From positions 1-61,787 of the forward strand of contig JAFAOG010000040.1 of NCBI GenBank assembly GCA_019237945.1: 61,787 bases of DNA, written 5' to 3'. Both the position numbers and the translations under genes were made by a program. The notes beneath the pieces are model-generated. The model saw nothing but the letters and a program-made list of their open reading frames with translations, did no database searches and was not told the DNA's origin. This stretch comes from Deltaproteobacteria bacterium. Its GTDB lineage: Bacteria > Myxococcota_A > Polyangia > Haliangiales > Haliangiaceae. The first letter of the stretch is position 1; each line of letters begins with the position of its first letter. Shown in pieces: positions 2,885 to 29,490 of this stretch.

Positions 2885-3529
<645 letters not shown>

Positions 3530-3643: not shown

Positions 3644-4942
3644 TTACGCGGCGCCGCGCTTCTCGACGAGCTCGATGCCGATGGTTCGCAGTAGCTCGCT
3701 CGGAGCACGCCCGCCGATCTGGATGATCACGGCATCGCAGGGCACGGTCTCGGTGCCTCGCGCGCCGCGCAAGATCACGCGATCACGATGAATCTCGGCG
3801 ACCTCGGTCCCGAGGTACGGCGTGATCTGACCGCTCCTGAACATCTTGTCGATCTTGTTGCGCACGAGGCCGCGCAACCGCCCGAGCTCGGTGCGCCGGT
3901 ACGACAGCGACACCGAGGCACAGTGCCCCTGCTCGACGAGCGCGATCGCGTTATCGGCCGCCGCGTTGCCTCCGCCGACGACGAGCACGTGCTTGTCCCG
4001 GTAGACCTGCGGCTCGAGCACCCGGTACGCGACCATCGGCAGCTCCTCGCCGGGAACGCCGAGCGTGTTCGGCGCGCCGCGCCGGCCGAGCGCGAGCACG
4101 ACGTTCGCCGCACGCTTGACCCAGCCGTTCGTGCCGACGACGCGCCACACGTTGCCCTCGGCGTGGATCGCCTCGACGCGCACGCCTTCCTCGATGTGGA
4201 GCTGCGTGCGCGCGCGGATGTCGCGCCACAGCTCGAGCAGCTGCTCCTTCGACATCGTCCTCTTGCGCACGGTGCCGTAGCCGGGCAGCTCGAAGCTGCC
4301 GGTCATGACGACCTTCGCGCGCGGGTAGTGCGCGATCGTGCCGCCCCACGCCGTCTGATCGACGACGAGCGTGCGGATGTTGTACGCCTCGAGCTGCAGC
4401 GCGGCGGCGGTGCCCGACGGACCGGAGCCGACGACGATCGCATCGTAGTCGCCGCCGCGCCGGCCTTCCTTGACGATCGCGGTCGCGGCCTGACGGCCCT
4501 GCTCGACGCAGTTGCGGATCAGGCCCATGCCCGACAGCTCGCCGACGACGTAGATGCCGCGCTGGCTCGTCTCGTAGTGCGGCGACAGCTTCGGCAGCTC
4601 CACACCGCGCGTCGCGGTGCCGTAGATCAGCTTGATCGCGCCGACCGGGCACGCCGACATGCACGCGGAGTGACCGACGCACGCGAGCGGGTTGATCAGG
4701 CGCGCGCGCCCGTCGGTGATCGCGAGGATGTCCTTCTCGGGACACGCGCGGATGCACGCGCCGGAGCCGATGCACTTGTCGAGATCGATCTCGGGGTGCA
4801 GCGTGATCGGGAAGATGTCATCGCCGAGCTGCTGCGCCTCCTCATGGCGCATCGCATTGCGCGCCTGGCGCTTCTTGTCCCAGTACGACCACGCCGCATA
4901 GGGAACGGCCGCGGCGAGGATCATCAAGACGACGACGTTCAT
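3644..4942 (-). CDS. Membrane-anchored 2x[4Fe-4S] ferredoxin / FAD-NAD(P)-binding oxidoreductase (thioredoxin-reductase-like)
   Basis: Start at MNVVVLMILAAAVPYAAW (TM anchor). Its ATG overlaps the stop of the upstream gene (ATGA at 4939-4942). Cys clusters CIGSGACIRACP and CVGHSACMSACP. Dinucleotide folds VVGSGPSGTAAA and VVGGGNAAADNA. Confidence 0.85.
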   Translation of the reverse strand: MNVVVLMILAAAVPYAAWSYWDKKRQARNAMRHEEAQQLGDDIFPITLHPEIDLDKCIGSGACIRACPEKDILAITDGRARLINPLACVGHSACMSACPVGAIKLIYGTATRGVELPKLSPHYETSQRGIYVVGELSGMGLIRNCVEQGRQAATAIVKEGRRGGDYDAIVVGSGPSGTAAALQLEAYNIRTLVVDQTAWGGTIAHYPRAKVVMTGSFELPGYGTVRKRTMSKEQLLELWRDIRARTQLHIEEGVRVEAIHAEGNVWRVVGTNGWVKRAANVVLALGRRGAPNTLGVPGEELPMVAYRVLEPQVYRDKHVLVVGGGNAAADNAIALVEQGHCASVSLSYRRTELGRLRGLVRNKIDKMFRSGQITPYLGTEVAEIHRDRVILRGARGTETVPCDAVIIQIGGRAPSELLRTIGIELVEKRGAA

Positions 4943-5304
4943 GGTGGAGTTGCCGGACCGTTTCCCGATGGGTGGCAGGACATGCAGAAGTCCGCGTTGA
5001 CCGGATCCCACGTGTAGCCGCTACCGGCGGATCCCGTGTGGATCGATGCCATGTCACCCATCGTGTGGCACGGGCCGCCGCACTGCGCGTGCACCGCGTT
5101 GAGACCCATGCCCTTCTTGAAGATGTGGCAGTCGGCGCAGTCGATGCCCATGTGGACGCCCGTCTTGATCGGGAACGCGTCCTCGGGATGGAGCAGCTTC
5201 TGCGTGTGGCAGTTCGTGCAGGAGCGCTCGGTGAACTCCACCTGCGACTGCGAGTGCGGCTCGGTGCACGCGGCGACGAGCGCGACGAGAACGAGCCACT
5301 TCAT
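4939..5304 (-). CDS. Small multihaem c-type cytochrome lipoprotein (121 aa)
   Basis: C-terminal part of ORF 4939..6051, from MKWLVLVALVAAC (lipobox). Motifs CTNCH, CADCH, CGGPCH and CMSCH. ATGA overlap with the upstream gene at 5301-5304. Confidence 0.8.
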   Translation of the reverse strand: MKWLVLVALVAACTEPHSQSQVEFTERSCTNCHTQKLLHPEDAFPIKTGVHMGIDCADCHIFKKGMGLNAVHAQCGGPCHTMGDMASIHTGSAGSGYTWDPVNADFCMSCHPSGNGPATPP

Positions 5305-6911
5305 GGCAGCGGCCTCCAGGCGAGCGTGGTGAGCAGTGCGAGCACGTCGCGATCCTGGCCTGTCGTGCCGAGCGCGTCGAGTGCGAAGTCGAACGCGGCC
5401 GACACGCTGTAGTGGAGGTCGAGCACGAGCGAGTGGATCACGAACGCCTCGCTCTGCGCCGCGTAGTCGAGACGCTCGGGGCGATACGTCACCGCGAGAT
5501 CGACGCGGCGGCTCGGCGACATCGCGAGGCCGAGATCGGCCGCTTCCCACGCCGAGAACGCGCTGTGACCGCCCGACACCGCGAGCACGGCGCGATGCGC
5601 ACGCGGTCCGAGCTCGCCGTGCACGTAGCCGGAGAAGTCCGTCTGTAGCGTGAGGCTCTGCGTCTGTCCGATCGAGCCGACCGCGTCGACGGCGTAGCCA
5701 TCGCCCGCGATCCCGCCCGACACCGTCGACGCGAGCCAGTAGTCGGCGCCGAGGCACGTCTCCGGCATCACGCCGGGCAACGCCTTCGTCGCGCACAGCC
5801 AGCTCTGCGGCAGCGCGGCCGCGAGGCGCAACGTGCGCTCGGGGCGCAGGAACGTGAAATCGAGGCCGACGTGGCTGCCGCGATGCCGCCACTCGCCCGA
5901 CGCGCCGGCGCCGGTGACGTCGATCGCGGGCGCGCCCCACGGGTTGTTCGCGTCGAACATCTGGACGTCGCCCCACGCGTTCAGGAACAGGGCGTCCTTC
6001 TGGGCGGCGGCGGCGATCGAGAGGATGCGCTCGTCGACCTGGCCGCCCCACGTCGAGCCGTGCGCATTGACGGCGAGATGCGGATGCCAGCCCGTGGGCG
6101 CGTCGTAGATCGCTTCCGCGCCGAAGCGCGAGGCGCTGGTGCCCGGCACGCCGCTGATCGGATCGGGCACGAGGCCGCCATACGCGGCGAGCTCGAGGTG
6201 ACCGGTGCGGAACGCGGCGCGGCCGCCGTCGAGCATGCCGACGCTCGTCGCGGCGTAGCGCAACCGGCCGAGCGCGATCGACGGATCCGCCGCATCACCC
6301 CAGCGCAGCGCGGCGGCGCGCACGAAGAACGGCACGCGCGAGCCCGAGTCGAAGCCGGTGCCGAACAGGCGAATGGCGGCGTCGACATCGGCGCCGAGCG
6401 CGCTGTCGGTGATCCGGTCGAAGCTGCCGACGATGCGCGCCTCGATCTGACCGCCCGAGCCGTCCTTGTCGAGGTTGCCGAACATGTGGCCGTAGACCGC
6501 GAGGTGATTGCTGCCGCGCGTCGCCGTCTCGCCGAGCGGGACCTCTTGGACCTGCTGCTGCGTCGCGGGCCGCACGGCCTCGGGCCACTGCTCCTTGAAC
6601 GCGTCGAGCGGCTTCGGCGCGGGGAGCTTCTCGCCCGGCGGGGCGCCCGGTTGCGTCGCTTGCGCCGAGGCGTCGGCGACTCCGGTCGTGCCGACCGGCA
6701 GCGACGCGTGCACCGCGCACGTCTTCTCGGTGCACTCGGCGATCGTGACGTCGCGCGCGCCGAAGCGCACGTGCATGCCCGCGCGCAGCCCGCTGACGGT
6801 GCCGCCGTCGATGTACGACGTGTCGCCCGCCGAGTCGATCACGCGCACGGTGATGCGATCCGCGAACGCCGCGTGCGCGACGAGCAACAGCAGCAGCGGC
6901 AGCTTCTTCAT
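5301..6911 (-). CDS. Putative outer-membrane beta-barrel protein of the cytochrome operon (536 aa)
   Basis: Met286 of ORF 5301..7766. Signal peptide MKKLPLLLLLVAHAAFA, a Pro-rich linker, then about 400 aa of alternating Gly/aromatic strand-like segments (LDFTFLRPE, VDLAVTYRPE, LVLDLHYSVSAAFDFAL). The barrel assignment is an inference. Confidence 0.7.
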   Translation of the reverse strand: MKKLPLLLLLVAHAAFADRITVRVIDSAGDTSYIDGGTVSGLRAGMHVRFGARDVTIAECTEKTCAVHASLPVGTTGVADASAQATQPGAPPGEKLPAPKPLDAFKEQWPEAVRPATQQQVQEVPLGETATRGSNHLAVYGHMFGNLDKDGSGGQIEARIVGSFDRITDSALGADVDAAIRLFGTGFDSGSRVPFFVRAAALRWGDAADPSIALGRLRYAATSVGMLDGGRAAFRTGHLELAAYGGLVPDPISGVPGTSASRFGAEAIYDAPTGWHPHLAVNAHGSTWGGQVDERILSIAAAAQKDALFLNAWGDVQMFDANNPWGAPAIDVTGAGASGEWRHRGSHVGLDFTFLRPERTLRLAAALPQSWLCATKALPGVMPETCLGADYWLASTVSGGIAGDGYAVDAVGSIGQTQSLTLQTDFSGYVHGELGPRAHRAVLAVSGGHSAFSAWEAADLGLAMSPSRRVDLAVTYRPERLDYAAQSEAFVIHSLVLDLHYSVSAAFDFALDALGTTGQDRDVLALLTTLAWRPLP

Positions 6912-7210
6912 CGGCGGATCCCCCGCGGATGACACGACAGGCACGCGCTCGCCGTCATCGCGACCGGCCGGCGGTGCTGCTTGCGGACGTCGCTGTGGCA
7001 GCCATCGCAGCGGACCATCTTCGGGCGCTGCCGATCGATGTGACAGTCGGCGCACGCGACGAGCTTGTGGCTGCCGGTCGACAGCGTGAACGACGTGTCG
7101 TGTGCGAGCGACTGCTGGATGCGCGGCATCACCTGCGTCGAGTCGGTGAACGCCTGGGAGAACGTCGTCGTGTTGTGGCACTGGCTGCACGTTCGCGGGA
7201 ACGGCGTCAT
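6908..7210 (-). CDS. C-terminal four-haem part of an interrupted decahaem cytochrome c (in frame with 7277..7729)
   Basis: Motifs CSQCH, CADCH, CDGCH and CLSCH. No signal peptide of its own. Same frame as 7277..7729, separated only by the TGA at 7277-7279 plus 22 sense codons. ATGA overlap with the barrel gene at 6908-6911. Confidence 0.6.
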   Translation of the reverse strand: MTPFPRTCSQCHNTTTFSQAFTDSTQVMPRIQQSLAHDTSFTLSTGSHKLVACADCHIDRQRPKMVRCDGCHSDVRKQHRRPVAMTASACLSCHPRGIRR

Positions 7211-7276
7211 GCTGCCTGACGGATCGGTGCCGTCGTGGTTGGGGTGCGTGTGCGGCGAGTGATAGTCCTTCGCGTG

Positions 7277-7729
7277 TCAGCCGTAGCAGTCGACGGGCAG
7301 GTCGCTGAACGTGCGCTCGGCCTGCCGCTTGTGGCACGCGTTGCACTCGACGATCGCGTGCGCACCGGTCAGCGGCATGCGCGTGCGGCGGTGCTGCTCG
7401 AGCTGCGCGACGTCGCTCCACGCGACCGCCGTGTGGCACTCGTAGCACTGGCCGTCCATGCGGCCCTGGTGCGGATCGCGGTGGCAGCCATCGCACGTCT
7501 CGCTGACCTGCGCGCCGTGGTGACACTCCTGACATCCGGTCTGCACGTGCTTGCCGCGCAGCGGGAACCCGGTCTTGTCGTGATCGAAGCCGGACTTCGC
7601 GGCGCCGCCGGCGAGCTTCCACGAGTCGCTCGTGTGGCACGCGCTGCAGTCGAGGCCCGCCGTGAGGCCGTCGTGCGCGTCGGCGAATGCCGTCGAGCAG
7701 AGGAGCAGGAGCACGAACAGCGCCTTCAC
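7277..7729 (-). CDS. N-terminal part of the decahaem cytochrome c (signal peptide + 5 CxxCH), ending at an in-frame TGA inside a sixth CxxCH
   Basis: Signal peptide MKALFVLLLLCSTAFA. Motifs CSACH, CQECH, CDGCH, CYECH and CNACH. Ends ...VDCYG-TGA-H. ATGA overlap with the upstream gene at 7726-7729. Confidence 0.75.
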   Translation of the reverse strand: MKALFVLLLLCSTAFADAHDGLTAGLDCSACHTSDSWKLAGGAAKSGFDHDKTGFPLRGKHVQTGCQECHHGAQVSETCDGCHRDPHQGRMDGQCYECHTAVAWSDVAQLEQHRRTRMPLTGAHAIVECNACHKRQAERTFSDLPVDCYG

Positions 7730-9522
7730 TTCGTCGGCCCCTTGTGCGGATCGGCGTGGCAGTCACGGCACGCGAAATAGCCGAGCCGGTAGCGCACGCT
7801 CTTGTCGCCGTTCTTCAGCTCCTCGGTCGGATGGCACTTCGCGCACTCGAGCGGCTTGTGCGCGCCCTCGAGCGGGTAGCGCGTCTTGTCGTGATCGAAC
7901 TTGTCGATCTTCCACTGCTCGACGGTGTGGCACGTCGTGCAGGCCTTCACCGGCTCGCTCGTGCGGAACTGCCCGGCGTGCATGTCCTCGTGGCAGCCCT
8001 CGCAGTCGCGCGGGATCCCGCGGAATGCAGCCGCCTCGGCGCCCTGCGCGACGTTGCCGTGACAGCCCGCGCAGCTCGCCCGCGCGTGGGCGCCGGTCAG
8101 CGGGAACGTCGAGTGATCGATCTTCGCCTGCTTCCATGCCATCGCCGTGTGGCAGTGCGCGCAGCCTCCGAGCTTCATCTCCTTGTCGAACTGCGTGCCG
8201 TGCGGGTTCTCGTGACACTCCGCGCACTGCTGCTTCGGCTGCTTCCACGTCAGCCGCGGGCGCGCGCCCGGGTGACAGCCGCTGCACGGAGTCGCCGCGT
8301 GCTTGCCGTCGAGCGTGTAGCCGGTCTGCACGTGCTGCGCGACGCCGAACGTCGTCGGCGTGAAGCCGCCGACCGAGTGGCACTGGTCGCAGGCGAAGCC
8401 CTTCATCTCGCCCTTGTGCTTGTCGGCGTGGCACGCCTCGCACGTGCCGAACGCGACCTTGCGATAGCGCGCGTCCGCGGGCTTGCTCGGCGCGTGACAC
8501 GCGGTGCACGCGGTCGTCTCGTGCTTGCCGGCGAGCGGATACTTCGTCTTGTCGTGCGACGAGCGGCCGATCGAGTCGGGCAGGCCGATCCACTTGATCG
8601 ACGCGTGACACGACTCGCATTTGTTGCCGAACGGCGCGTCGTGGACGTTCGGATGACACGCGACGCACGTCGAGCCCTTCGTCGGCGGCTTGTCGTTACC
8701 GCGGTCGTGACACGTCTTGCATCCGACCTTCGCGTGGCCATTCGCGAGCGAGACGACGGGATGCGCGCCGCCCTTGAGCGACGCCTCGCTCGCCTGCCAG
8801 CCCTTCGTGTCGTGACACTCGGCGCACGGCTTCGGCTTGAACGACGGGCGGTGCGGATCGGCGTGGCACTGATCGCACGTGTTGAACGCGAGCGGTTGCC
8901 ACTTCGGCGGCGCGCCGTGGCACTTGTCGCACACGACCGGTGCGTGCTGGCCGGTCAGCGGATAGCGCGTCAGGTTGTGATCGAACGTCCGCTGATCGAA
9001 CGCCTGCCACTTCGTGACGTTGTGGCACTTCTGGCAGGCCGCGGTGAACCGGCCCTTGTGCGGATCGGCGTGGCAGCTTCCGCAGGCGGTCGGCGTCTGC
9101 ACGAACTGCGGCTTGCCCTGCGGCGACTTCTTCGTGTGGCACTTGAGGCACGTCGGTGCGACGTGGCCACCCTCGAGCTTGTAGCCGGTCTCGTTGTGAT
9201 CGAGCTTCTCCATCGCGCCGCCCGGCCAGCGCGTCAGCTTCGCGCCGCGCCCGAGGTGATCGACGTGGCACTCCTCGCACGCCTTGCCCTTGTACGCGCG
9301 CCCGTGCAGGCCGCGCCCGCCGGCGATCTCGGCGCCGAGGTCCTTGTGGCAGTCGAGGCACAGGCGCGCGACGACCTGCTTGCCGGACTCGTGGCACTTG
9401 CTGCAGTCGTCGTCGCTGTCGATGTTCGCGTGCGCGCTCGCGAGCGGGCCGGGCGAGAGCAGCTGCGCGTGCGCGAAGCTCGGCCACGCGACCATCACCG
9501 CGAGCAGGACGATGTACTTCAC
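7726..9522 (-). CDS. Large periplasmic multihaem cytochrome c (about 598 aa; I count 23 CxxCH motifs)
   Basis: GTG start gives the signal peptide (M)KYIVLLAVMVAWPSFAHA and a GTGA overlap with the upstream gene. An alternative ATG lies at 9495. Reiterated modules F-D-H-x2-T-x-Y-P-L-x-G-x-H-x4-C-x2-C-H. The first 305 codons of ORF 7726..10437 are shadow sequence overlapping the real gene 9519..10355. Confidence 0.85.
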   Translation of the reverse strand: MKYIVLLAVMVAWPSFAHAQLLSPGPLASAHANIDSDDDCSKCHESGKQVVARLCLDCHKDLGAEIAGGRGLHGRAYKGKACEECHVDHLGRGAKLTRWPGGAMEKLDHNETGYKLEGGHVAPTCLKCHTKKSPQGKPQFVQTPTACGSCHADPHKGRFTAACQKCHNVTKWQAFDQRTFDHNLTRYPLTGQHAPVVCDKCHGAPPKWQPLAFNTCDQCHADPHRPSFKPKPCAECHDTKGWQASEASLKGGAHPVVSLANGHAKVGCKTCHDRGNDKPPTKGSTCVACHPNVHDAPFGNKCESCHASIKWIGLPDSIGRSSHDKTKYPLAGKHETTACTACHAPSKPADARYRKVAFGTCEACHADKHKGEMKGFACDQCHSVGGFTPTTFGVAQHVQTGYTLDGKHAATPCSGCHPGARPRLTWKQPKQQCAECHENPHGTQFDKEMKLGGCAHCHTAMAWKQAKIDHSTFPLTGAHARASCAGCHGNVAQGAEAAAFRGIPRDCEGCHEDMHAGQFRTSEPVKACTTCHTVEQWKIDKFDHDKTRYPLEGAHKPLECAKCHPTEELKNGDKSVRYRLGYFACRDCHADPHKGPTK

Positions 9523-10355
9523 GCAAAGATCCAGCGGTAGCCGTAGTGCCACGCGACGAGCGCGTGCAACAGCACCGCGATGATCATCAGCAGCGCGAAG
9601 AACCGGTGGAGGCCGCGCCACGTCCGAAGCAGCGCGCTGATCCCCTGCGCGCGAGCATCCGCTGCACTCGTCCGGTAGAGGTCGCGCTCCGCTCGCTTGA
9701 GCGGCTTCGTCATCTTGTGCGGCATCATCATCGCGAGCGCGACCCGGCGTGCTTTCGCGGCCGCGCGCCATTTCGGGATCGCGGCGACGGCCGTCAGGAG
9801 GTTTGCATTCGCGGCGACCGTCGGACCCGGTCGCTTCTGCATCGCGAGCACGAGGTCCTCGCGCATGCCGGGGAACTCGGTCTCGAACGCGTCGATCGCG
9901 GCGTCGAGGCGCTGCTGCGTGTTGCTCGGCGCGAGGAAGTGAAGCAGCCGGCCGAGCACGCCGGTCAAGACGACCATCGCGAGCGAGATCGTCGACGTCG
10001 TCGCGATCGGCGTGCGCAGCTGGAACGCCGAGTGGAACGACACCAGCGACGCGATCATCAGGCCCGTGAACACGTGGATGTCGAGCCACACCGCCATCGA
10101 GCCCCAGCGCGTGCCGCCGAGCCGTCGCCGCACGAGGTAGCCGAGGTTCAGGATGATCAGCAGCGCGGCGATCCAGCCGTAGCCGTTGCCGAGCATTCCG
10201 CTCGGGCGCAGCGTGCGGAAGTCGGGATGCTCCGGGCGATCTTGAACCGACATCCAGTAGAACGACCACCCGCGTGCCGCGAGGATGATCGTGGTGGCGA
10301 CGACGACGAGCGCGAGGCTCACCGTCAGCGCCGGACTTCTCCGGGTTGCAGACAT
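9519..10355 (-). CDS. Polytopic membrane protein, first gene of the cytochrome operon (possible b-type cytochrome/quinol-interacting subunit)
   Basis: 278 aa with at least 5 hydrophobic segments carrying His residues (WLDIHVFTGL, LVSFHSAF, RLLHFLAP, AVLLHALVAWHY). Good codon bias. Function is inferred from operon context only. Confidence 0.7.
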   Translation of the reverse strand: MSATRRSPALTVSLALVVVATTIILAARGWSFYWMSVQDRPEHPDFRTLRPSGMLGNGYGWIAALLIILNLGYLVRRRLGGTRWGSMAVWLDIHVFTGLMIASLVSFHSAFQLRTPIATTSTISLAMVVLTGVLGRLLHFLAPSNTQQRLDAAIDAFETEFPGMREDLVLAMQKRPGPTVAANANLLTAVAAIPKWRAAAKARRVALAMMMPHKMTKPLKRAERDLYRTSAADARAQGISALLRTWRGLHRFFALLMIIAVLLHALVAWHYGYRWIFA

Positions 10356-10739
10356 CTCCCGGCGCGGACGTTAAGCCCGCGTGAATCGAAAACGGAAGCG
10401 CACGACCCCTGTCATCGCACGACGAAACACTGTGCAAAGTGCGTACACCGAGACGCAGACTTCGAATTTGAAAATGAAATGCAGAGTCCCGTATGTCGGA
10501 TGTTTCGTACGATCAGCGTCTTGTACGTCTCGGGACAGTCAACGTCAGCAAGCTCACGGATCTTACGCGAACCTCAGCGCGAGTCATCGCCGATTCGCGC
10601 ACATCCGCGAACGACGGATCGCGCGGTTGGATCCTCTGTCGATGTCACGAAGGTTGGAGCACCAACAATTCTTACTCGTTGACGCCTACATCAGCGTGAG
10701 CCGAGCGTGAGCCCGATGATCACGGGGAGATCTATTTTT

Positions 10740-12302
10740 ATGCGTCTTCACCTGTTCGCTCCGCTGCTGTTCGTCGGTGCGTGCGCGACCGATCCGGCGA
10801 CCGATACCACCGAGCAAAACGCGTCCGTCACGCACGGCAAGGACGTGTGGTTCAAGAGCACGTTCGGCGGTGAAAAGCTCTTCAGCATCATCCTGCCGGG
10901 CCCGCCGTTCAACCTGACGCTCGGTCTGGATGCCGCGCTGACGTCGCCTCGCGACACGCGCTTCACGCAGTACGGTCTGATCAACGACCCGGACTGCGTG
11001 CAAGGTGACGCGTCGAGCGGCTACCTCGACAAGTGCGCCGATCCCGAGTCGGCGGGTGTCGTCGGCGTGCGCAAGAAGATCATCCTGACGGCGGGCGGAC
11101 CGAAGGTCCTCGTCGGCGTCGCGTGCGCCGCGTGTCACGCGGGTCTCGATGCGGCGAACCCGCCGGCGGATCCGAATCACCCGACGTGGGCGAACATTCA
11201 CGCGACGACGGGCAACCAGTACATCCAGATCGGCAAGCTGTTCGGCGCGCATCTGTCGCCGCACGATCCGCGCAAGCAGGTCTTCGATACGTGGGCGCCG
11301 GGCACCGTCGACACGACGGCGATCGAGTCCGACGGCGTCAACAACCCGGGCATCATCACCCAGTTCTTCAACACGCCCGAGCGCCCGTACTTCGACCTGA
11401 CCGACAACGGTCTCGCGATCCACGTGCACCGCGGCGGTCAGGGCGGCGAGGACGACGCGGGCTGCGAGAAGGCGGCGCTGCGCGTCTACTTCAACATCGG
11501 CATGTGCGCGGCCGAGTGCATGGTCCCGCACCTCGCGAACGGCCCGGGCGGCACGCAGACGCCGATCGACGACGCGGAGTGCAGCTCGCGCTGCCCCGAC
11601 TACGTGCAGGCGAAGGCCGACGTCGTCGACGAGTGCGCGTTCATGGCGACCAACACGCCGCCCGCGCTGCCGGCGAGCTACATCGATCAGGGCAAGGCGA
11701 ACCACGGCCGCGAGGTGTTCCGGAAGAACTGCGCGGGCTGCCACAACAACGGCGAGAAGCTCCAGGACGACACGATCCTCTCGGATGACCTGATCCATCC
11801 CGCGGCGGAGATCGGCACGAACTCGTGTCGCTCGAAGTCGACGAACTGGACCGCGGGTCACATCTGGGCCGAGTTCTCGTCGGATCAGTACAAGGCGCGC
11901 CCGACCGGCGGCCCGGGCTTCTACCGCGACGTCCCGCTGACGGCCGTGTGGGCGACCGCGCCGTTCTTCCACAACAACCGCCTCGGTACGTACAACGGTG
12001 ACCCGTCGATCAATGGCCGTCTCGCCGCGTACTACGACGCGATGGATCAGCTGCTGAACCCGTGGAAGCGCGACCTGCTGGGCTCGATCCTGCGCACGAG
12101 CGACTGGATCCAGATCCCGACGCCGCTCGGCCCGGCGACGCTGCCGGCCGGCACGCCGGTCGCGCTGTTCGCCAACGCGAATCCGGCGAACCCGCTCGAG
12201 AACCGCTGCCCGGACCTCGTCGAGAACGAGGGCCACTACTACGGCGCCTTGCTCTCCGACAAGGACAAGGAATCGCTCGTCGAGTTCCTGAAGACGAAGT
12301 AA
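10740..12302 (+). CDS. Di-haem cytochrome c peroxidase-like lipoprotein
   Basis: Met12 of ORF 10707..12302. Lipobox LLFVGAC. Two CxxCH motifs (CAACH, CAGCH). APFFHNNRLG resembles the distal-haem region of the CCP/MauG family. Confidence 0.75.
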   Translation: MRLHLFAPLLFVGACATDPATDTTEQNASVTHGKDVWFKSTFGGEKLFSIILPGPPFNLTLGLDAALTSPRDTRFTQYGLINDPDCVQGDASSGYLDKCADPESAGVVGVRKKIILTAGGPKVLVGVACAACHAGLDAANPPADPNHPTWANIHATTGNQYIQIGKLFGAHLSPHDPRKQVFDTWAPGTVDTTAIESDGVNNPGIITQFFNTPERPYFDLTDNGLAIHVHRGGQGGEDDAGCEKAALRVYFNIGMCAAECMVPHLANGPGGTQTPIDDAECSSRCPDYVQAKADVVDECAFMATNTPPALPASYIDQGKANHGREVFRKNCAGCHNNGEKLQDDTILSDDLIHPAAEIGTNSCRSKSTNWTAGHIWAEFSSDQYKARPTGGPGFYRDVPLTAVWATAPFFHNNRLGTYNGDPSINGRLAAYYDAMDQLLNPWKRDLLGSILRTSDWIQIPTPLGPATLPAGTPVALFANANPANPLENRCPDLVENEGHYYGALLSDKDKESLVEFLKTK

Positions 12303-14690: not shown

Positions 14691-16438
14691 ATGGGCACGG
14701 TCGCCGTGGTGTGCTCGGATCACTCCGTCGAGGACTGGGTGTTTCGTGCGCTCGATGGCGCGCTCGTGATCGTCGATGTCGCGCCTGCGGACGTCATGGT
14801 GATCACCGAGGACTGCCTCGAGGCGATCGTCGCGCACGTGCCGCCGGAGAGCTCGGTCGTCGTGCTCGGCGAGCCGACGCGGACGTACTCGCGCGCGGAC
14901 TTCGTGATCACGCGCAGCTGGCGCGAGCACGACCTCCAGCGCCTGCTCGTCGCGCTCGCGAATCACAAGCCGCTGGCGCTGCCGCCGCTCGGTACGCCCG
15001 AGAATCCGGCGGAGGCCCGCGATGCGCAGCGCGCGTTGCTCGCGACGCGCAAGATGTCGACCGCGACGGACCTCGCGAGCACGGAGGCGATGACGGTCGA
15101 GAACGTCGTCGAGCTCGTCGATGCCGATCGTGCGTACTGCCTGTACTACGACGCCGAGAGCGCGGCGCTGTGGTCGGAATCTCGCCGCGGCGGCGAACCG
15201 ATGTCCGCGATCGTCGGAATGGCGGCGTTCGCGGCGAGGACCGGGCATCCGGCCGTCGCGCCGAAGGTCGGGGAGGATCCGCGGTTCTTCGGCGCCATCG
15301 ACGATCCGCAGGCCGACGAGGGCGATCACACCCTCGCGCAGCCGATCCTCGGCGCGGATGGTCTCGTGCACGCGGTCGTCGTCGTGTCGCGACGTGTGAA
15401 CCGGCCGTTCTTTCGGGATGCCGAGGTTCGCCTGCTCGCGCGGTTCGCGCAGCTCGCGGCACCGGTGCTCGATCAGCTGTCGATCCACGTCCATAGCGAG
15501 GCGCTGCTCGAGGAAGAGGCGGCCGAGAATCCGGTGTTCCGGCGCGCCGCGATCCAGGCGGCATCGGCGCCGACCTGGGGCGATGTCGTGCGCGTGTCGC
15601 CGAGCTGGATCACGTGGGCGTACTGGGTGCTCGTCGCGGTGCTCGTCGCCGCCGGCGTGTTCACGTTCGTCGGGCGCGTGTCGACGTATTCCGCGGGTCC
15701 GGCGATCGTGCGGTCGACGGCGCGCACGCCGATCGCAGCGCGCAACGGTGGGATCGTCGTCGCGCTCGACGTGTCGCCGGGCGATCGCGTAGCCGCGGGC
15801 GCTCCGATCGCGCGTCTCGACGACAGCGAGCAGCGTGCGGCCGTCGATCACCTGCAGCGCGAGCTCGAGACGCAGCTGCGCGCGCACATGCTCGATCCGG
15901 GCGACCTCGCGGCCGACAGCGCGCTGCGGACGATCCGGCACGACCTCGACGGTGCGAAGACGGCGCTCGACGAGCGCGTGATCCATGCGCCGGTCGCGGG
16001 CGTGATCGGCGACGTGCGCGCGCGGTCGAGCCAGCGACTCGAGCCCGGTGACGTGATCGCGACCGTCGTCGATAGCAACGAGGCGCTCGAGGTGATCGCG
16101 CTCTTGCCCGGCGAGGATCGCCCGCAGCTCGCGCCGGGGATGACGGTGCGGCTCGAGCTCGCCGGCTATCGGTATGCGTATCAATCGTTCGCGATCGAGA
16201 ACGTGTCGCAGGACGTGATCGCGCCGGCCGAGGCGAAGCGCGTGCTCGGCGCCGAGGTTGCCGATGGCCTGGCGCTGCCGGGACCGGTCGTGATCGTGCG
16301 CGGCAAGCTCGCGAAGCCGGAGTTCGTCGTCGACGGACGCACGCTGCGGTACCACGACGGCATGGTCGGCACCGCCGAGGTGCGCGTGCGCTCGGAGCCG
16401 ATCGTGTACGCGCTCGTGCCGGGCACGCGGAGGTTTCA

Positions 16439-16442
<4 letters not shown>
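14691..16442 (+). CDS. Cytoplasmic pseudo-receiver + GAF domain fused through one TM helix to a HlyD-family secretion adaptor
   Basis: GAF-like region (DRAYCLYYD..., GMAAFAARTGHPAVAPKVGEDPRF, LAQPILGADGLVHAVVVVSRR). TM helix WAYWVLVAVLVAAGVFTFV. HlyD hairpins (GIVVALDVSPGDRVAAGAPIARLDD, IHAPVAGVIGDVRA). Confidence 0.85.
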
Positions 16443-18678
<2,236 letters not shown>

Positions 18679-18682
<4 letters not shown>

Positions 18683-19533
18683 AGCGCCTGCTGCTGGTGC
18701 TGATCGCGGCGTGCGGAGTCGATCGCGGTCCCGCGCCTGCGCCCGCGCCGGCCCCGGCTCCGGTCAAGCCGGCGACGCGCGATGCGGCCGCCGCGCCCGA
18801 GGAATTCGTCGGCGTGCTCGCCGCCGCGCAGTCGGTCGACATCGCGCCGCGCGCGGCCGGGGTCGTGATGAAGCTCGATGTCGCGACGGGCGACGCCGTG
18901 ACGATGGGGCAGGTCGTGGCCGAGATGGATCCGGTCGGCCTGCAGGAGGAGCTGCGCGCCGCCGAGGCCGCGCTCGGAGCCGCGACGGCCGCGCATCGCC
19001 AGGCGATCGTCGACGTCGAGGATGCCAAGCGCAAGGTCGCGCTCGAGACGCAGGCGGTCGCCGATGGCGTGAGCGCGCGCAGCGTCCTCGAGGAGGCGAA
19101 GTTCGCGGTCAAGCGCGCGGAGGCCGCGGAGCAGAAGGCGGCCGCGACGCAGGCGGCGGAGGCTTCGCGCGCCCAGACCGCACGCGATCACGTCGGCGAT
19201 ACGCAGCTGCGCGCGCCGTTCGACGGCACGGTCGCGCAGCGCTTCCACGATGCCGGCAACCGGATCGAGGCCGGCGGCGCGATCCTGCGGATCGTCGGCA
19301 ACGGCGGCATGCGGCTGCGGTTCGCGGTGCCGCCCGATCGCGCGCACGCGCTGGCGCTCGGCGCGAAGGTCATGGCGACGATCGATACGGTCGCGGCGCC
19401 CGTGGCGGCGACGATCAAGCAGATCTCGCCGACGATCGACGCCGCATCGGGCATGGTGATCGTCGAGGCGGAGCTCGCCGATGGCGGCGGCGGTGCATTG
19501 CGGCCCGGTCTCGCTGCGCGGGTGAAGCCGTGA
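18679..19533 (+). CDS. Periplasmic adaptor (HlyD/RND MFP-type) lipoprotein
   Basis: Tail of ORF 16585..19533 starting at a GTG (GTGA overlap). Lipobox LIAAC, PAPAPAPAP linker, coiled-coil Ala/Glu region, then LRAPFDGTVAQRF. Confidence 0.8.
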
Positions 19534-22500
19534 GCGCGAAGAAACCGGCGACGACCGAACCGGCGCGCACGCACAAGCTCGCCGAGCGGTTCGTGCTGCG
19601 CTCGCCGGTGCTGCCGCTCGCCGCGCTCGAGCACCTCGACGTCCGCGCGCTACTCGCGGACCCGGGCGTGCGCGAGGCGCTGTTCATCGCATCGCCGGAG
19701 CTGACGACCGCGCTCGAGGCCGGCAGCACCGACCCCGGCGTGCTGCGCGCGGCCGTTCGCTACCTGTCGCGCATGGCGTTCCGCGCGACGCCGTTCGGGC
19801 TGTTCTCCGGTGTCGTGACCGGGACGTTCGCGGCGACGAGCGAGCTCCGGCTCGCCCCGCGCACCGAGCACGATCGCCACACGCGCCTCGACAACGACTA
19901 CCTCGCGAAGCTGTGCGATGCGATCGCCGCCGACCCGGCGATGCGCGGCGAGCTGACGTTCGGGCCGACGTCGAGCCTCTATCGCGTCGGCGACAAGTAT
20001 CGCTATGCGGCCGGCAAGCTGATCCGCGAGGTGCGCGAGTACCACCTCGTCGCGATCGATGCGACGCCGTACCTCGACGCGGTGATCGAGCGGGCGCGTG
20101 CCGGGGCCACCCTCGACCAGCTCGCCGCGGTGCTCGCGAGCGATCCCGAGCTGACGCGCGAGGAGATCGACGGCTATCTCGGCGAGCTCGTCGCCGTGCA
20201 GCTGCTGGTCCCGACGCTGCAACCGCGCGTGACCGGCCCCGAGCCCGCAACCGTGCTGCGCGGAATGCTCGATGCGATGCCGTCGGCGCGCGGGTTCGCG
20301 AGCGTGCTCGGCGATGTCAGCGCGCGGCTCGCCGCGATCGACGAAGCGCATGGCGCGGCGCCCGAGACCTATCGCGCGATCGCGGCCGCGCTCGAGCCGC
20401 TGCCCGCGAAGGTCTCGATCGCGCGCCTGTTCCAGGTGGACGTCACGCTGCGTGCCCCGGTCGTCACGCTCGGGCCGCGCGTCGCCGCCGAGATCACGCG
20501 CGCGTTCGAGCTCACGCGCAAGCTCGTGCCCGCTCGCAACGACGAGGCGTGGAGAAAGTTTCGCGAGCAGTTCAACACGCGCTACGAGACGCGCGAGGTG
20601 CCGCTCGTCGAGGTGCTCGACGAGGAATCGGGGATCGGCTTCGGCACGCCGAGCGGTGACACCGCCCAGGCGCCGCTGATCCGCGACCTGCCGTTCCCAG
20701 CGATGGCGGCGGGCGACCGCACGTTCACGGCACGCGAGGCGACGCTGCTGCGCCTGGTCGGCGAGTCGCGCGGCGCGACCGAGCTGGTGCTCTCCGATGC
20801 CGATGTCGCGGCGCTCGCCCACGATCCGGGCCCGCTCGCCGACACGGTGACGTTCACCGTGCGCATCGCCGCCGCGTCGCGCGAGGCACTCGACCGCGGC
20901 GACGTCACGATCGACTCGAACGGCTTCACGAGCGCCTCCGCGACGCGTCTGCTCGGCCGCTTCTGCCATGGGTCGCGCGAGGTGCACGCGTTCGTCGACG
21001 AGCTGGTCGCGCGCGAACACGCGCTCGCCGGCGACGCCATCCTCGCCGAGATCGTGCACCTGCCCGAGGGCCGGCTCGGCAACATCCTGCTGCGCCCCGT
21101 GCTGCGCGAGTACGAGATCCCGTACATGGGCACGAGCGGCGCGCGGGCCGACAAGCAGATCCCGATCACCGATCTGCTCGTCTCGGTGCACGGCAGCCGC
21201 GTCGTGCTGCGATCGCGCCGGCTCGGCCGCGAGGTCCGCCCGCAGCTCGCGACCGCGCACAACTATGGCCTGCGCAGCCTCGCGATCTATCGCTTCCTGT
21301 GCGCGCACGCGTCGCAGCACACCGAGGGCGGCCAGTGGTCGTGGGGCGCGCTCGAGTCGTTGCCGTTTTTGCCGCGCGTGCGCCACGGCAAGGTCCTGCT
21401 CGCGCGCGCGACGTGGTCGGTGCGCAAGCCCGACCTCGAGAAGCTCACCGACCCGGCCTCCGCCCGCGCGCTGCGCGATCGCCGAGGGCTGCCGCGCTGG
21501 ATCGTCGTCGCCGACGGAGACAACGAGCTGCCGGTCGACTTCGACAACGATGCGTCGCTCGACGCGTTCGTCCAGATCGTGCGCTCGCGCGAGGCCACGC
21601 AGCTCGTCGAGATGCATCCGGCGCCCGATCAGCTGATCGTCGACGGCGCCGACGGCAAGCACACCCACGAGATCGTCGTCGCGTTCGTGCGCGAGCAACC
21701 GGCGCCGCAGCGGCCCGTCGACGTGAGGCCGGTGACCGTCGAGCGCCGCTTCCCGCCCGGCTCGCGCTGGCTCTACGCGAAGCTCTACGCCGGCACGGCG
21801 ACGCTCGATGCGCTGCTGCGCGAAGCGATCGCACCGCTCGTGCGCGAGGCCATCGCGACCGGGATCGCCGATCGCTGGTTCTTCCTGCGCTACGCCGATC
21901 CGGACGACCACGTGCGGCTCCGCTTTCACGGCGATCCGGCGCGCCTCGCCGAGCTGCTGCCGCGCCTCGCCGAGCTCCCCGTGCGCCGCCTCGTGCTCGA
22001 TACGTACGAGCGCGAGGTCGAACGCTACGGCGGCGATCGCGGCATCGAGCTCGCGGAGCACATCTTCGCGGCCGACAGCGAGGCCGTGCTGACGATCGTC
22101 GAGCACACGCGGGGCGACGAGGGCGCCGACGTGCGGTGGAAGCTCGCGGTGCTCGGCCTGGATCTCATGGCGCGCGATCTCGGGCTCGATGTCCCGGCGA
22201 GACTCGCGCTTGCGACGCGCGTCCGCGATGGCTTCGCGGCCGAGCACGGCGTCGATACCGCATTCCAGAAGCGCCTCGGCGACAAGTTCCGCGCGCACGC
22301 GACCGAGCTCGCCGCGCTGCTCGCGACCCGGCTCGACGATCCGGATCACGACTACGCGCCCGGGCTCGAGGCGTTCGCCGCGCGCTCCGCCGCGATCGCG
22401 CCGCTCGCCGCCGAGATGCGCGCGCATGTCTCGTCGGTCGACGACGTGCTCGCGAGCCTGTGGCATATGCACGTCAACCGCATGCTGCCGAGCATGCAGC

Positions 22501-22580
22501 GCCGCCAGGAGCTCGTGATCTACGACCTATTGCGGCGCCACTACGACGGCGTGATCGCACGCCAGCGAGCGAAGAAATGA
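19530..22580 (+). CDS. Full-length LanB-type lantibiotic dehydratase family protein (N-terminal glutamylation + C-terminal elimination/SpaB_C-like domains)
   Basis: GTG start (GTGA overlap). FVLRSPVLPL, the FRATPFGLFSGV motif, and the C-terminal RWFFLRYADPDDHVRLRFHG motif typical of the thiopeptide/lanthipeptide dehydratase C-terminal domain. 1016 aa. Confidence 0.9.
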   Translation: MSAKKPATTEPARTHKLAERFVLRSPVLPLAALEHLDVRALLADPGVREALFIASPELTTALEAGSTDPGVLRAAVRYLSRMAFRATPFGLFSGVVTGTFAATSELRLAPRTEHDRHTRLDNDYLAKLCDAIAADPAMRGELTFGPTSSLYRVGDKYRYAAGKLIREVREYHLVAIDATPYLDAVIERARAGATLDQLAAVLASDPELTREEIDGYLGELVAVQLLVPTLQPRVTGPEPATVLRGMLDAMPSARGFASVLGDVSARLAAIDEAHGAAPETYRAIAAALEPLPAKVSIARLFQVDVTLRAPVVTLGPRVAAEITRAFELTRKLVPARNDEAWRKFREQFNTRYETREVPLVEVLDEESGIGFGTPSGDTAQAPLIRDLPFPAMAAGDRTFTAREATLLRLVGESRGATELVLSDADVAALAHDPGPLADTVTFTVRIAAASREALDRGDVTIDSNGFTSASATRLLGRFCHGSREVHAFVDELVAREHALAGDAILAEIVHLPEGRLGNILLRPVLREYEIPYMGTSGARADKQIPITDLLVSVHGSRVVLRSRRLGREVRPQLATAHNYGLRSLAIYRFLCAHASQHTEGGQWSWGALESLPFLPRVRHGKVLLARATWSVRKPDLEKLTDPASARALRDRRGLPRWIVVADGDNELPVDFDNDASLDAFVQIVRSREATQLVEMHPAPDQLIVDGADGKHTHEIVVAFVREQPAPQRPVDVRPVTVERRFPPGSRWLYAKLYAGTATLDALLREAIAPLVREAIATGIADRWFFLRYADPDDHVRLRFHGDPARLAELLPRLAELPVRRLVLDTYEREVERYGGDRGIELAEHIFAADSEAVLTIVEHTRGDEGADVRWKLAVLGLDLMARDLGLDVPARLALATRVRDGFAAEHGVDTAFQKRLGDKFRAHATELAALLATRLDDPDHDYAPGLEAFAARSAAIAPLAAEMRAHVSSVDDVLASLWHMHVNRMLPSMQRRQELVIYDLLRRHYDGVIARQRAKK

Positions 22581-28400: not shown

Positions 28401-28677
28401 GCGTCTGGCCGAGCTGTACGCGGACGCCCTTGTGCACCGCGCGCGTCGGATCCATGTCGAACACGACGTCGTAGGTGCCCGGCACGACATCGGTGACCTT
28501 GTAGGCGCCGTGGCCGTCGGTGACCGCTGACTGCGTGCCGATCGTGACGTAGACCGCGGCCAGCGGCTCCTTCGTGTCGCGATCGGTGACGATGCCCTCG
28601 ACGGAGCCCGTCGTGATCTCCTGCGCGTACGACACACTCGTCATCGCGACGAGAACCAAGCAAATCGAAAACCTCAT
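25444..28677 (-). CDS. TonB-dependent receptor-like outer-membrane protein with an N-terminal carboxypeptidase-regulatory-like domain
   Basis: Met111 of ORF 25444..29007. Signal peptide MRFSICLVLVAMTSVSYA. GSVEGIVTDRDTKEPLAAVYVTIG...VPGTYDV. Plug-like region ENRYIVDGVDITG. C-terminal ...AQVGFRVTF. Confidence 0.85.
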   Translation of the reverse strand: MRFSICLVLVAMTSVSYAQEITTGSVEGIVTDRDTKEPLAAVYVTIGTQSAVTDGHGAYKVTDVVPGTYDVVFDMDPTRAVHKGVRVQLGQTLRLDEKLKIGEAIEIHGTPPPLDLRHPSHEKHFDRAYLDDMPVPGPNFDNVIGAIGGAQNDGVGTAFSGSTSLENRYIVDGVDITGLTFGNVGTPVPNAFIDDIQVITGGMDAEMGRATGGVVNLVTRNGTDTVRGSIFGAITPGFLTAGVQRAPVNASSIDVTPNQAYTSNFGVELGGPIVKGRAWWYVGVAPQLSRVDYTRTIKRETDCHVRLDNGSISTCEKQYADGVPDIDPATGFYLTDIIGHDTRTSTSRSFASLAKITAAPAEAQTVQASLIALPSVSDSPQLFGNPGAGRHTTGLTTDAVMKWNAKFDDAHTEVEALVAWHRSTLNSGAIDPALDAQPSQQLIGGDLATLSALGYDHADGCQDRTASDPYPLIVNCPLGTRGYEVGGPGALSHDTEDRRTARLSVTERRDFLGNHEMKAGIDVEDNVKSTARLLSGGAAITNYLGSDVRIQRWAALGEGSETCQTPGDSTGPNAGMKSYQCHFLGGTVGSPGTQVGGQTVDWAAFLRDSWRPYRTLTLNAGLRYEDQRLNYAESLRNTTDPLTHEHIGTTAMALTGNLAPRLGAIWDPSDEGKTKLFASWGRFYEAIPMDINDRSFGGEVSDVRDFAPSQCGASDPRLGGPDGRGCLMGAHPTTEQLIGSSGVLVAPGIQAEYVDEVLAGAEIAVIPNVVAGVTVQHRTLGRAIEDVSTDGANTYIIANPGEWSRDAETQLQRQIAMTSDAATKNRLTRELGLFQGIRTFDKPSRNYDAIELSLSRRFTSGLYLQGSYTYSRAEGNYPGSVSYDNGQIDPNISSQYDLIELLANRRGPLPQDRPHSLKIDAYRGFEVGRGVLTIGTRIRAISGVPINALGPHYLYGPNESFLLPRGVLGRTGLEHGVDVHVGYRRKLSATTSAELYMDFFNIYNHQGTFNVDETYTPAISGGVNPISGGEYADLIWAKTTDKNGMETSQPTPRNPNFGHTTARYAPASAQVGFRVTF

Positions 28678-28809
28678 GCTCTCGTCGTACGCGCGACGAC
28701 GTACTTCGCGACAGCATGCGGTGCTCACGCTCTTACACACGCTGCGTGCGACACGCGCGAGTGGTGTCGCAGTATCTTGCGCGAGAGGCCCGCGCCGGGG
28801 AGCGACAAA

Positions 28810-29490
28810 ATGACCGACACGCTTCGCACGCTGACGCGAGACATCACGACGTGCCGCAGGTGCGCCCGTCTCGTGCGATGCCGGGAAGCAGCAGCTGCGA
28901 CGCCGCCGAAGCGATTCGCCGGACAGTCGTACTGGGCGCGTCCGATCCCCGGCTTCGGTGATCCGAAAGCGCGGCTGCTCGTCGTCGGCCTCGCGCCGGC
29001 CGCGCACGGCGGCAACCGCACCGGCCGCGTGTTCACCGGCGATCGCAGCGGCGACTGGCTCTACGGCGCGCTGTATCGCGCGGGCTTCGCGAACCAGCCG
29101 GAGAGCACAGGACTCGACGACGGGCTCGTGCTCGCCGATGCCTACGTGACGGTCGCGGTGCGGTGCGCGCCGCCGACGAACAAGCCGACGCCCATCGAGC
29201 GCGATCGCTGCACGGGCTATCTCGTGCGCGAGCTGCGCCTGCTGAAGAACGTGCGCGCCGTCGTCGCGCTCGGCGCGTTCGGCTGGGACGGCTTTCTACG
29301 CGCGGCGCGCGAGCTCGGTCACGACACGAAGCCACGCCCGGCATTCGCGCACGGCGCGCACGCGGCGGTCGGCCCGTACCGGCTGTTCGGCAGCTACCAC
29401 GTCAGCCAGCAGAACACGTTCACCGGCCGGCTGACGGAAGCCATGCTCGATGCGGTGTTCACTTCCGCGAAGGCCGCAGCTCCCGCCTGA
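28810..29490 (+). CDS. Uracil-DNA glycosylase, family 4/5 (UDGb-like, Fe-S type)
   Basis: Start at MTDTLRTL. CRRCARL Cys cluster. Motif A GLAPAAHGGNRTGRVFTGDRSG. SYHVSQQN motif B. Confidence 0.85.
   Translation: MTDTLRTLTRDITTCRRCARLVRCREAAAATPPKRFAGQSYWARPIPGFGDPKARLLVVGLAPAAHGGNRTGRVFTGDRSGDWLYGALYRAGFANQPESTGLDDGLVLADAYVTVAVRCAPPTNKPTPIERDRCTGYLVRELRLLKNVRAVVALGAFGWDGFLRAARELGHDTKPRPAFAHGAHAAVGPYRLFGSYHVSQQNTFTGRLTEAMLDAVFTSAKAAAPA

Follow-up and report, generated by a model that had tools for sequence, protein, structure and literature searches.

A six-gene operon on the minus strand (3644-10355) of contig JAFAOG010000040.1 (61,787 nucleotides, analysed at full length and referred to here as the window), from a Deltaproteobacteria bacterium of the Haliangiaceae (assembly GCA_019237945.1), probably encodes a self-sufficient route for electrons through all layers of the cell envelope, fed directly by a cytoplasmic NAD(P)H dehydrogenase and not by the quinone pool; we put the probability of this reading at roughly 0.6. 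It builds on the domain identities of the six proteins (g1 to g6, numbered in the order of transcription), the barrel fold of g4, the conservation of the gene set and the fusions between g6 and g1 in other genomes, all of which were computed here. If the predicted cofactors are loaded, NAD(P)H would be oxidised at the FAD of the g6 flavoprotein on the cytoplasmic face of the inner membrane, and the two iron-sulfur (Fe-S) clusters of g6 would pass the electrons to the cytoplasm-side haem b of g1 (H94/H250), from which they would cross the membrane to the periplasm-side haem b (H108/H264). The 23-haem chain of g2 would then carry them through the periplasm to the decahaem cytochrome g3, which would be threaded through the 22-strand barrel g4, and they would leave by the lipoprotein cytochrome g5, presumably at the cell surface, and perhaps by the tethered lipoprotein g7. 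Candidate extracellular acceptors are Fe(III)/Mn(IV) minerals, humics, other metals and O2. A first-pass annotation, made from the sequence of the window alone, had proposed a comparable porin-cytochrome conduit with its own inner-membrane and NAD(P)H-linked modules, and this proposal is supported by the barrel fold, by the conservation of the genes as a unit and by the lack of a catalytic reductase in the operon.

The main evidence that would tie NAD(P)H oxidation to the haem chain is the occurrence of g6-g1 fusions within the same type of operon. A g1 profile searched against 1.84 billion representatives retrieved 2134 relatives. Among the 150 relatives listed, about 12 are ~740-760 amino acids (aa) long and carry the g1 domain at the C terminus, and one carries it at the N terminus; Pfam confirmed P0309 and P0315 (g6 followed by g1) and P0308 (the reverse order) as fusions. 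Over 394 residues, P0309 shares 44% identity with g6, and the CxxS/CxxH motifs of g6 recur in it. Both orders fit the predicted topologies, in which the g6 anchor runs from outside to inside and g1 has its N terminus inside and its C terminus outside; in P0308, the additional helix to be expected is present between the g1 and g6 parts. Among the listed matches to P0309, those with an organism name belong to Myxococcaceae, Archangium and Myxococcus, one of them being the cultured Myxococcus sp. RHSTA-1-4. Fused genes are found at the head of, or inside, the same operon type in Archangium, in a cultured Myxococcus isolate and in two further assemblies (loci L033 and L036), where they are accompanied by a 20-23-haem cytochrome, a 10-13-haem cytochrome and a 540-940-aa barrel protein without Pfam match. 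Three of the four barrel proteins tested (L033, L036 and L038) matched a hidden Markov model (HMM) of the Kofleriaceae barrels (E 1e-9 to 1e-11), and that of L035 gave no score at E <= 10. A further cytochrome with 11 (L035), 27 (L033) or 29 (L038) haems is present in three of the four fused loci examined in detail. Because of these Rosetta-stone fusions, together with co-occurrence in the same loci and the shared operon, the flavoprotein would be expected to feed the cytochrome b, and the cytochrome b to feed the haem chain. As a separate observation, one homologue of the fused proteins (P0370, 873 aa) carries an FHA domain between its ferredoxin and flavoprotein parts, which hints at phospho-threonine-dependent regulation in some lineages.

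The gene set is also conserved outside the fused loci. A word-filtered search with the g4 barrel gave 153 homologues at E <= 0.001; those with names, among the matches listed, are all called 'hypothetical protein' and come mostly from Kofleriaceae assemblies. We recovered 27 genome loci from Kofleriaceae, Haliangiales, Myxococcales and Polyangiaceae assemblies and mapped the six proteins onto them. The order g1-g2-g3-g4-(g5)-g6 was found in at least 15 of these loci, with barrel identities of 38-80%. In Polyangiaceae (barrel identity 29-30%), g1 to g4 remain together and g6 lies nearby in divergent orientation. A second subtype (six loci: L003, L007, L009 and L022-L024) lacks both g1 and g6 and keeps g4 and a g5-like gene; its multihaem cytochrome is shorter, and in four loci it is fused to the decahaem cytochrome (507-543 aa). 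Across the 27 loci, g1 and g6 either both occur or are both missing wherever the contig is long enough to tell. Further metagenome contigs from soil and sediment carry the same gene sets. The operon is in this way conserved as a unit across many independent assemblies, with dozens from Kofleriaceae, Haliangiales and Polyangiaceae, at barrel identities of ~29-80%, and it is rearranged or fused in more distant Myxococcota. Both subtypes occur together in one Haliangiales genome (Co_metawrap_2332), with L013 and L023 on separate contigs.

Within the window (G+C ~69%), an open reading frame scan with translations gave six reading frames in this segment, all with high third-position G+C. All five junctions between them are start/stop overlaps of 4 nucleotides (nt), namely GTGA at 9519-9522 and 7726-7729, and ATGA at 6908-6911, 5301-5304 and 4939-4942. 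The first-pass annotation had described the operon and its overlaps in the same way except for the junction at 7726-7729, which it gave as ATGA and which reads GTGA. The overlaps are kept in relatives, at four of five junctions in L001 and at all five in L005.

In g6, an N-terminal transmembrane anchor (N-out, C-in) precedes a ferredoxin-like domain, which is followed by an FAD/NAD(P)H flavoprotein resembling thioredoxin reductase. The transmembrane helix is followed by positive residues, and the remainder of g6 is therefore predicted to be cytoplasmic. Pfam matches were obtained to Pyr_redox_3 (1.3e-35) and Fer4_10 (5.3e-11). The flavoprotein part is of the two-dinucleotide-domain type and matched the broad Pyr_redox_3 and Pyr_redox_2 folds; its nearest solved structures are YpdA/Bdr proteins and ferredoxin-NADP reductases of the thioredoxin reductase (TrxR) type, and it has no CxxC, that is, not the disulfide of the thiol reductases. 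Scores against the thioredoxin reductase and YpdA-type disulfide reductase models TIGR04018 (144 bits, cut-off 339.9) and TIGR01292 (60.6 bits, cut-off 343) were both below the family cut-offs. The protein had been described as a membrane-anchored oxidoreductase with two [4Fe-4S] clusters and flavin/NAD(P) binding; the anchor, the ferredoxin fold and the flavoprotein were all found, and the canonical pair of [4Fe-4S] clusters was not, since the ferredoxin domain (residues 57-99) has only six cysteines. These are arranged as C-x2-S-x2-C-x3-C-P and C-x2-H-x2-C-x3-C-P (motif sequences CIGSGACIRACP and CVGHSACMSACP). Their Ser60 and His91 recur in at least 90% of the 18 homologues aligned, and the fused proteins of Myxococcaceae have them too. 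Because conserved Ser and His take the place of Cys, the motifs suggest clusters that are either [3Fe-4S] or Ser/His-ligated, and not the canonical pair.

The presumed partner of g6 in the membrane, g1, has five predicted transmembrane helices and a cytoplasmic helical domain of ~100 aa between helices 4 and 5. The label 'His-rich' that it had been given does not hold, as the protein contains only 8 His; five of them do not vary in the 17 homologues taken from the loci or in the 35 taken from databases. Among the invariant residues are the pairs H94/H108 on helix 3 and H250/H264 on helix 5, the partners of each pair being 14 residues apart (H-x13-H). By the positive-inside rule, each pair has one His near each membrane face, and this predicted arrangement is the one that two stacked haems b with bis-His ligation would have. 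Against DUF4405, g1 itself scored 20.2 bits (gathering cut-off 26.7); in the family of 35 members, 33 match DUF4405 (best E 5.5e-5) and five match Ni_hydr_CYTB (prokaryotic cytochrome b561; best E 1.1e-5), all weakly, and some homologues have been named 'cytochrome b561' by JGI. Haem b binding has been shown for DUF4405 proteins, which have been proposed as transmembrane electron carriers (PMC11334425). We regard g1 as a putative cytochrome b, distantly related to DUF4405/b561.

With these two proteins as the proposed entry module, the direction of electron flow can be considered. Outward flow is favoured here: NAD(P)H, at about -320 mV, is strongly reducing, so that electrons leaving it run downhill, and the membrane potential helps their export. 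The sequences do not fix the direction; porin-cytochrome conduits are generally known to work both ways (MtoAB/PioAB), and the family of the flavoprotein includes reversible ferredoxin-NADP reductases. Electrons could accordingly be imagined to enter from extracellular Fe(II), minerals or cells and to run through g5, g3 and g2 to g1, with g6 reducing NAD(P)+ or a cytoplasmic ferredoxin-type acceptor, much as in iron oxidation by PioAB and MtoAB. However, we hold this to be quite improbable, as electrons from Fe(II) or cytochrome c would have to go steeply uphill to reach NAD(P)+ and, on entering a negative interior, would cost membrane potential as well. The operon also encodes no proton- or ion-coupling subunit, and no linkage to carbon fixation or oxidase genes was found at the loci examined.

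For the outer membrane, the first-pass annotation had seen a barrel-like strand periodicity in the 536-aa protein g4. The AlphaFold2 model (59 homologues) has a mean predicted local distance difference test (pLDDT) score of 83, and of >90 over most of the barrel, and comprises an N-terminal beta domain (~19-80), a disordered linker and 22 antiparallel strands (135-535). The loops are 2-11 residues long, except for one insert of 35 residues (356-390). This insert also contains two short helices, and C373 and C386, which are conserved in at least 90% of the 59 homologues, fall within it (model strand coordinates); it could be a disulfide-stabilised lid or a docking element. In a Foldseek search against the PDB, the best 50 of 285 matches (E <= 0.001) were all outer-membrane barrels, with template-modelling (TM) scores of 0.3-0.4, and included porins (substrate-specific ones among them), AlgE and the FimD/PapC ushers. 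On the strength of the model, we have confidence in the prediction of g4 as a 22-strand outer-membrane barrel and not a soluble protein. The sequence itself is unlike those of known families: g4 has no Pfam or NCBIfam match at E <= 0.01 and none of the 59 members has a Pfam match, the HMMs of the MtrB/PioB family (PF11854 and TIGR03509) gave no match, and the family profile found no PDB chain at E <= 1. Because no Pfam or NCBIfam model exists, current annotation is unlikely to recognise this family.

The usher pores FimD/PapC rank 3-7 among the Foldseek matches, and g4 has, like the ushers, an extra N-terminal periplasmic domain. Hence one might take g4 for a translocon, usher-like or Slam-like, that exports or assembles surface lipoprotein cytochromes, with electron transfer across the outer membrane taking place elsewhere or not at all. 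This is very unlikely in our view, since the TM scores of 0.3-0.4 are no better than those of ordinary porins, g4 is without the plug or C-terminal domains of ushers, and no Pfam Usher match was found in the 59 members. In addition, g4 is most tightly linked to the periplasmic decahaem cytochrome and not to the variable lipoprotein.

The two larger cytochromes, g2 and g3, would provide the haem chain from the inner membrane to the barrel. Exactly 23 CXXCH motifs were counted in g2, in agreement with the figure of about 23 given before; they form seven tandem tri-haem c7-like units of ~72 aa, plus two further haems. Pfam Cytochrome_C7 was matched in six stretches (E 3.6e-31), and the protein contains 49 His, enough for bis-His ligation of the 23 haems. 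The homologues of g2 are 45-87% identical and occupy the same operon position in relatives; no direct match at E <= 0.01 to the solved Geobacter dodecahaem structure was found among PDB sequences. In g3, ten haem motifs are invariant across homologues of 273-296 aa, and in the present copy nine are intact (CXXCH) and one is interrupted (CYG[TGA]H), which bears out the earlier count of ten haems over 273 codons if the gene is read through. In having ten CXXCH (one interrupted), a secretion signal and a length of ~300 aa, g3 shows the traits of MtrA/DmsE-type cytochromes. By sequence it matched only generic c7/c3 families: when read through it did not match the MtrA/DmsE family TIGR03508, NCBIfam at E <= 0.1 yielded nothing beyond a weak match to HmcA, and the solved MtrA chains in the PDB gave no match at E <= 1. 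The g3 gene lies directly upstream of the barrel gene in every related locus.

The interruption of g3, a TGA at 7277-7279, is a single C-to-A change with respect to TGC. The codon at this site is TGC in L001 and L002, the closest relatives (protein 88% identical), and likewise in all 43 metagenome contigs that matched a degenerate pattern open to both codons (a first, stricter pattern had retrieved nothing); no second TGA was found among these 45 relatives. Divergence from L001 is equal upstream and downstream of the stop. We take the TGA for a nonsense allele of recent origin or else for an error in base calling. A UGA aligned with the Cys of homologues is the classical signature of a selenoprotein, and a multihaem selenoprotein is known from Geobacter, although there the selenocysteine is the catalytic residue and lies outside the CXXCH motifs (PMC13510729). 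Selenocysteine in g3, which would create a CXXUH haem motif, was considered and rejected, and we give it next to no credence: the 77 nt downstream of the TGA fold no better than shuffled sequence (z 0.05), so that a hairpin resembling a selenocysteine insertion sequence is missing, there is no tRNA-Sec or sel gene within the window, and all 45 relatives have TGC.

The last cytochrome, g5, was correctly described as a multihaem lipoprotein of 121 aa: behind the lipobox LVAAC it has three CXXCH and one CGGPCH, corresponding to 3-4 haems. Its homologues are variable (120-155 aa, 3-5 haems) and are duplicated at some loci. In Myxococcaceae/Archangium, the role of g5 appears to be taken by the 11-haem (L035), 27-haem (L033) or 29-haem (L038) cytochromes of the fused loci. 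With g3, g4 and g5 all having the expected signals or folds and a conserved arrangement, the gene trio of porin-cytochrome systems is present in the operon.

Large multihaem proteins can also serve as capacitors or reductases, and the substrate-specific porins among the best Foldseek matches of g4, as well as a divergent gene for a di-haem peroxidase-like lipoprotein in the window and in L001, could be read in the same direction. The cytochromes would then be purely periplasmic, either an electron store or a reductase of a soluble compound (a metalloid, a nitrogen or sulfur oxyanion, or peroxide), and g4 would be a solute porin or substrate channel. Several observations make this unlikely. Neither a catalytic subunit nor a CXXCK motif was found in the operon, and the His counts permit bis-His ligation of all haems; service in a known periplasmic reductase pathway, an outcome that the first-pass annotation had named as refuting its reading, finds no support. 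The pairing of barrel and decahaem genes is invariable across wide divergence and rearrangement. The peroxidase-like neighbour is found in the closest relative only. Moreover, the 27-29-haem cytochromes added in related operons have weak matches to MtrC/MtrF domains, and that of L038 starts with a lipoprotein-type signal typical of cell-surface cytochromes.

A number of points weigh against the envelope-spanning NAD(P)H path. The Pfam matches of g1 are all below gathering thresholds, its AlphaFold model is moderate (pLDDT 75, lower in the membrane part) and Foldseek with this model gave no structural match below E 0.1, so that the assignment of g1 as a cytochrome b rests on features of its sequence. 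The Fe-S motifs of g6 are atypical, the 22 predicted strands of g4 make a narrower barrel than the 26 strands of MtrB, and g5 may face the periplasm. The present copy of the operon carries a stop codon in g3 and, as assembled, is either inactive or mis-called at one base. Moreover, the export of electrons from NAD(P)H would not in itself conserve energy, which makes a redox-balancing device or a surface reductase like the NADPH oxidases (NOX) more likely than a coupling site, and a role in mineral-reducing respiration is not obvious because the lineages concerned are mostly known as aerobes.

The features of the locus are collected in Table 1.

Table 1. Genes and other features of the conduit locus in the window
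Feature	Position	Strand	Size and signals	Description
g1	9519-10355	-	278 aa	inner-membrane protein, putative di-haem cytochrome b
g2	7726-9522	-	598 aa, GTG start, signal peptide	periplasmic cytochrome c
g3	6908-7729	-	273 codons, signal peptide	decahaem cytochrome c, in-frame TGA at codon 151
g4	5301-6911	-	536 aa, signal peptide	predicted outer-membrane barrel
g5	4939-5304	-	121 aa	lipoprotein cytochrome c
g6	3644-4942	-	432 aa	membrane-anchored ferredoxin-like domain and flavoprotein
g7	2885-3529	-		possible accessory lipoprotein, directly downstream of g6
In-frame TGA in g3	7277-7279	-		second Cys of haem motif 6, CYG*H
Upstream intergenic region of the operon	10356-10706	-		presumed promoter and leader, shared with the divergent di-haem lipoprotein gene
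Divergent di-haem lipoprotein gene	10707-12302	+		two CXXCH; weak di-haem cytochrome c peroxidase and RoxA-like matches

The product of g7 is a lipoprotein in which ~60 residues form a poly-Gly tether; its beta-rich domain shows two conserved motifs, GHHNPGQNCLNCH and CNxSGCH, and neither Pfam nor NCBIfam gave a match. The gene is conserved directly downstream of g6 in L001, and in L005 it adjoins the operon upstream, on the opposite strand. It could encode a tethered redox or metal-binding accessory at the cell surface. The divergent peroxidase/RoxA-like gene was considered as a component of the system and set aside, being kept at its position only in L001, the closest relative, and it probably lies outside the system.

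The intergenic region between this gene and g1 has long blocks identical to L001, including CTGCATTTCA.TTTCAAATTCG and CGCGTCTCGGTGTACGCAC.TTGCACAGT, at an overall identity of 84%, and this conserved leader may have a regulatory function. It includes a terminator-like hairpin (10399-10421) a short way upstream of g1. Upstream of the operon, no sigma-70-like promoter and no Rfam family were found, and terminator-like sites are at chance level.

Elsewhere in the window, 14691-22580 (plus strand) holds a lanthipeptide- or thiopeptide-type cluster unrelated to the conduit operon, with an HlyD-like protein with GAF domain, an ABC exporter with C39 peptidase and a LanB-type dehydratase of 1289 aa. 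A TonB-dependent-receptor-like outer-membrane protein of 1187 aa with a carboxypeptidase-regulatory-like domain is encoded at 25444-29007 (minus strand). A similar PEGA/TonB receptor adjoins the fused operon in L033, which may be a coincidence.

Two parts of the system are best classed as new. One is the g4 barrel, which by the Pfam, NCBIfam and PDB searches forms a new family and resembles Geobacter OmbB/Ext in gene layout, and the other is the putative entry module of NAD(P)H-flavoprotein and cytochrome b, previously undescribed in conduits of the porin-cytochrome type. To our knowledge, every characterised extracellular electron transfer pathway of Gram-negative bacteria starts at a quinol dehydrogenase (CymA, ImcH, CbcL or NetBCD). 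If the proposed path is correct, the direct entry of NAD(P)H would represent a different bioenergetic design, non-conserving and driven by the membrane potential, which is nearer to the NADPH oxidases than to respiration. Metagenome clusters of multihaem cytochromes plus a barrel, routinely scored as 'iron respiration', would then also be read differently. Possible uses would include redox balancing, the reduction of metals or humics, and the generation of reactive oxygen or of Cu(I)/Fe(II) during predation.

Myxococcota of soils and sediments commonly carry the system, and, as far as we know, this phylum is not considered electroactive apart from Anaeromyxobacter. At somewhat less than even odds, we propose in addition that Myxococcota, including the cultivable aerobic predators Myxococcus and Archangium, have a 'split NOX on a wire' that works without quinones and would give the cell a surface reductase driven by NAD(P)H. 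In this tentative scheme, g6 and g1 would inject cytoplasmic reducing power into a 20-23-haem cable that leads to a new family of cytochrome-filled barrels. Because a cultured Myxococcus carries the fused form, the hypothesis could be tested by genetics and biochemistry, provided that the isolate proves no less tractable than model Myxococcus strains.

The composition of the operon is, as had been supposed, not one already described: no curated family matches it and no paper describing it was found in the library searched. Our literature search returned neither a description of the system in Myxococcota nor any NAD(P)H-linked porin-cytochrome cluster. Its parts can nevertheless be set beside several known systems. 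Like MtrCAB of Shewanella oneidensis, MtoAB and PioAB, the operon tightly couples a periplasmic decahaem cytochrome, a large outer-membrane barrel and a lipoprotein cytochrome, and the wire-in-a-sheath arrangement is presumed to be alike. It differs in that there is no HMM match to MtrB_PioB or DmsE/MtrA and none to the solved MtrAB chains, in the number of barrel strands (22 predicted in g4, 26 in MtrB) and in the outer cytochrome, which has 3-4 haems in ~100 aa in g5 but is the decahaem MtrC in Shewanella. The entry of electrons differs as well, since Mtr draws them from the quinol dehydrogenase CymA, whereas the operon would use its own NAD(P)H-flavoprotein and cytochrome b. A comparison with the MtrB family had been suggested by the first-pass annotation; given that no curated Mtr or DmsE family matches, the likeness to Mtr and Pcc is one of architecture and not of family membership.

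The Geobacter clusters of the OmaB/OmbB/OmcB, Ext and OetABI types likewise combine a periplasmic multihaem cytochrome, a porin-like protein and a lipoprotein cytochrome, and their outer cytochromes are variable, as they are here. These clusters were found by genome context (PMC10553843). Among the listed matches of the g4 barrel there was no protein from Geobacter or with an OmbB, Ext or Oet name. The inner-membrane partners in Geobacter, ImcH, CbcL and CbcBA, are quinol oxidases, and reviews of inner-membrane components of extracellular electron transfer contain quinol oxidases only (PMC6295460), in contrast to the NAD(P)H-linked g6/g1. The g2 cytochrome resembles another group of Geobacter proteins, the poly-c7 'nanowire' cytochromes GSU1996 (12 haems) and GSU2210 (27 haems), in being built of tandem tri-haem units, and presumably it is likewise an extended haem wire; it differs from them in having 23 haems and in being embedded in a conduit operon. 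We know of no partners of the Geobacter poly-c7 cytochromes.

The Hmc and Tmc complexes of sulfate reducers share with the operon a large periplasmic multihaem cytochrome, a membrane cytochrome b and a cytoplasmic Fe-S protein. The weak HmcA match of g3 reached 25 bits, compared with a family cut-off of 400 bits. Unlike the operon, Hmc and Tmc carry electrons inwards to sulfate reduction and are without a flavoprotein, an outer-membrane barrel and a lipoprotein cytochrome.

The entry module itself compares with NOX and ferric reductases, with MsrQ plus Fre and with DUF4405/PepSY-like cytochromes, in all of which electrons pass from NAD(P)H through flavin and two bis-His haems b to an acceptor outside. 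The helices of g1 that carry the presumed haem-ligand His have two each with 13 residues between them, as in the di-haem carriers of the NOX type. The differences lie in the components: g6 is a TrxR-type flavoprotein with an interposed Fe-S domain, where NOX has a dehydrogenase domain of the FNR type; g1 has five helices and a large cytoplasmic insert, unlike NOX-type carriers; and the acceptor would be a multihaem chain that crosses the outer membrane. The g6/g1 pair is functionally closest to the NOX and ferric reductases and to MsrQ plus Fre, but it is built from other parts.

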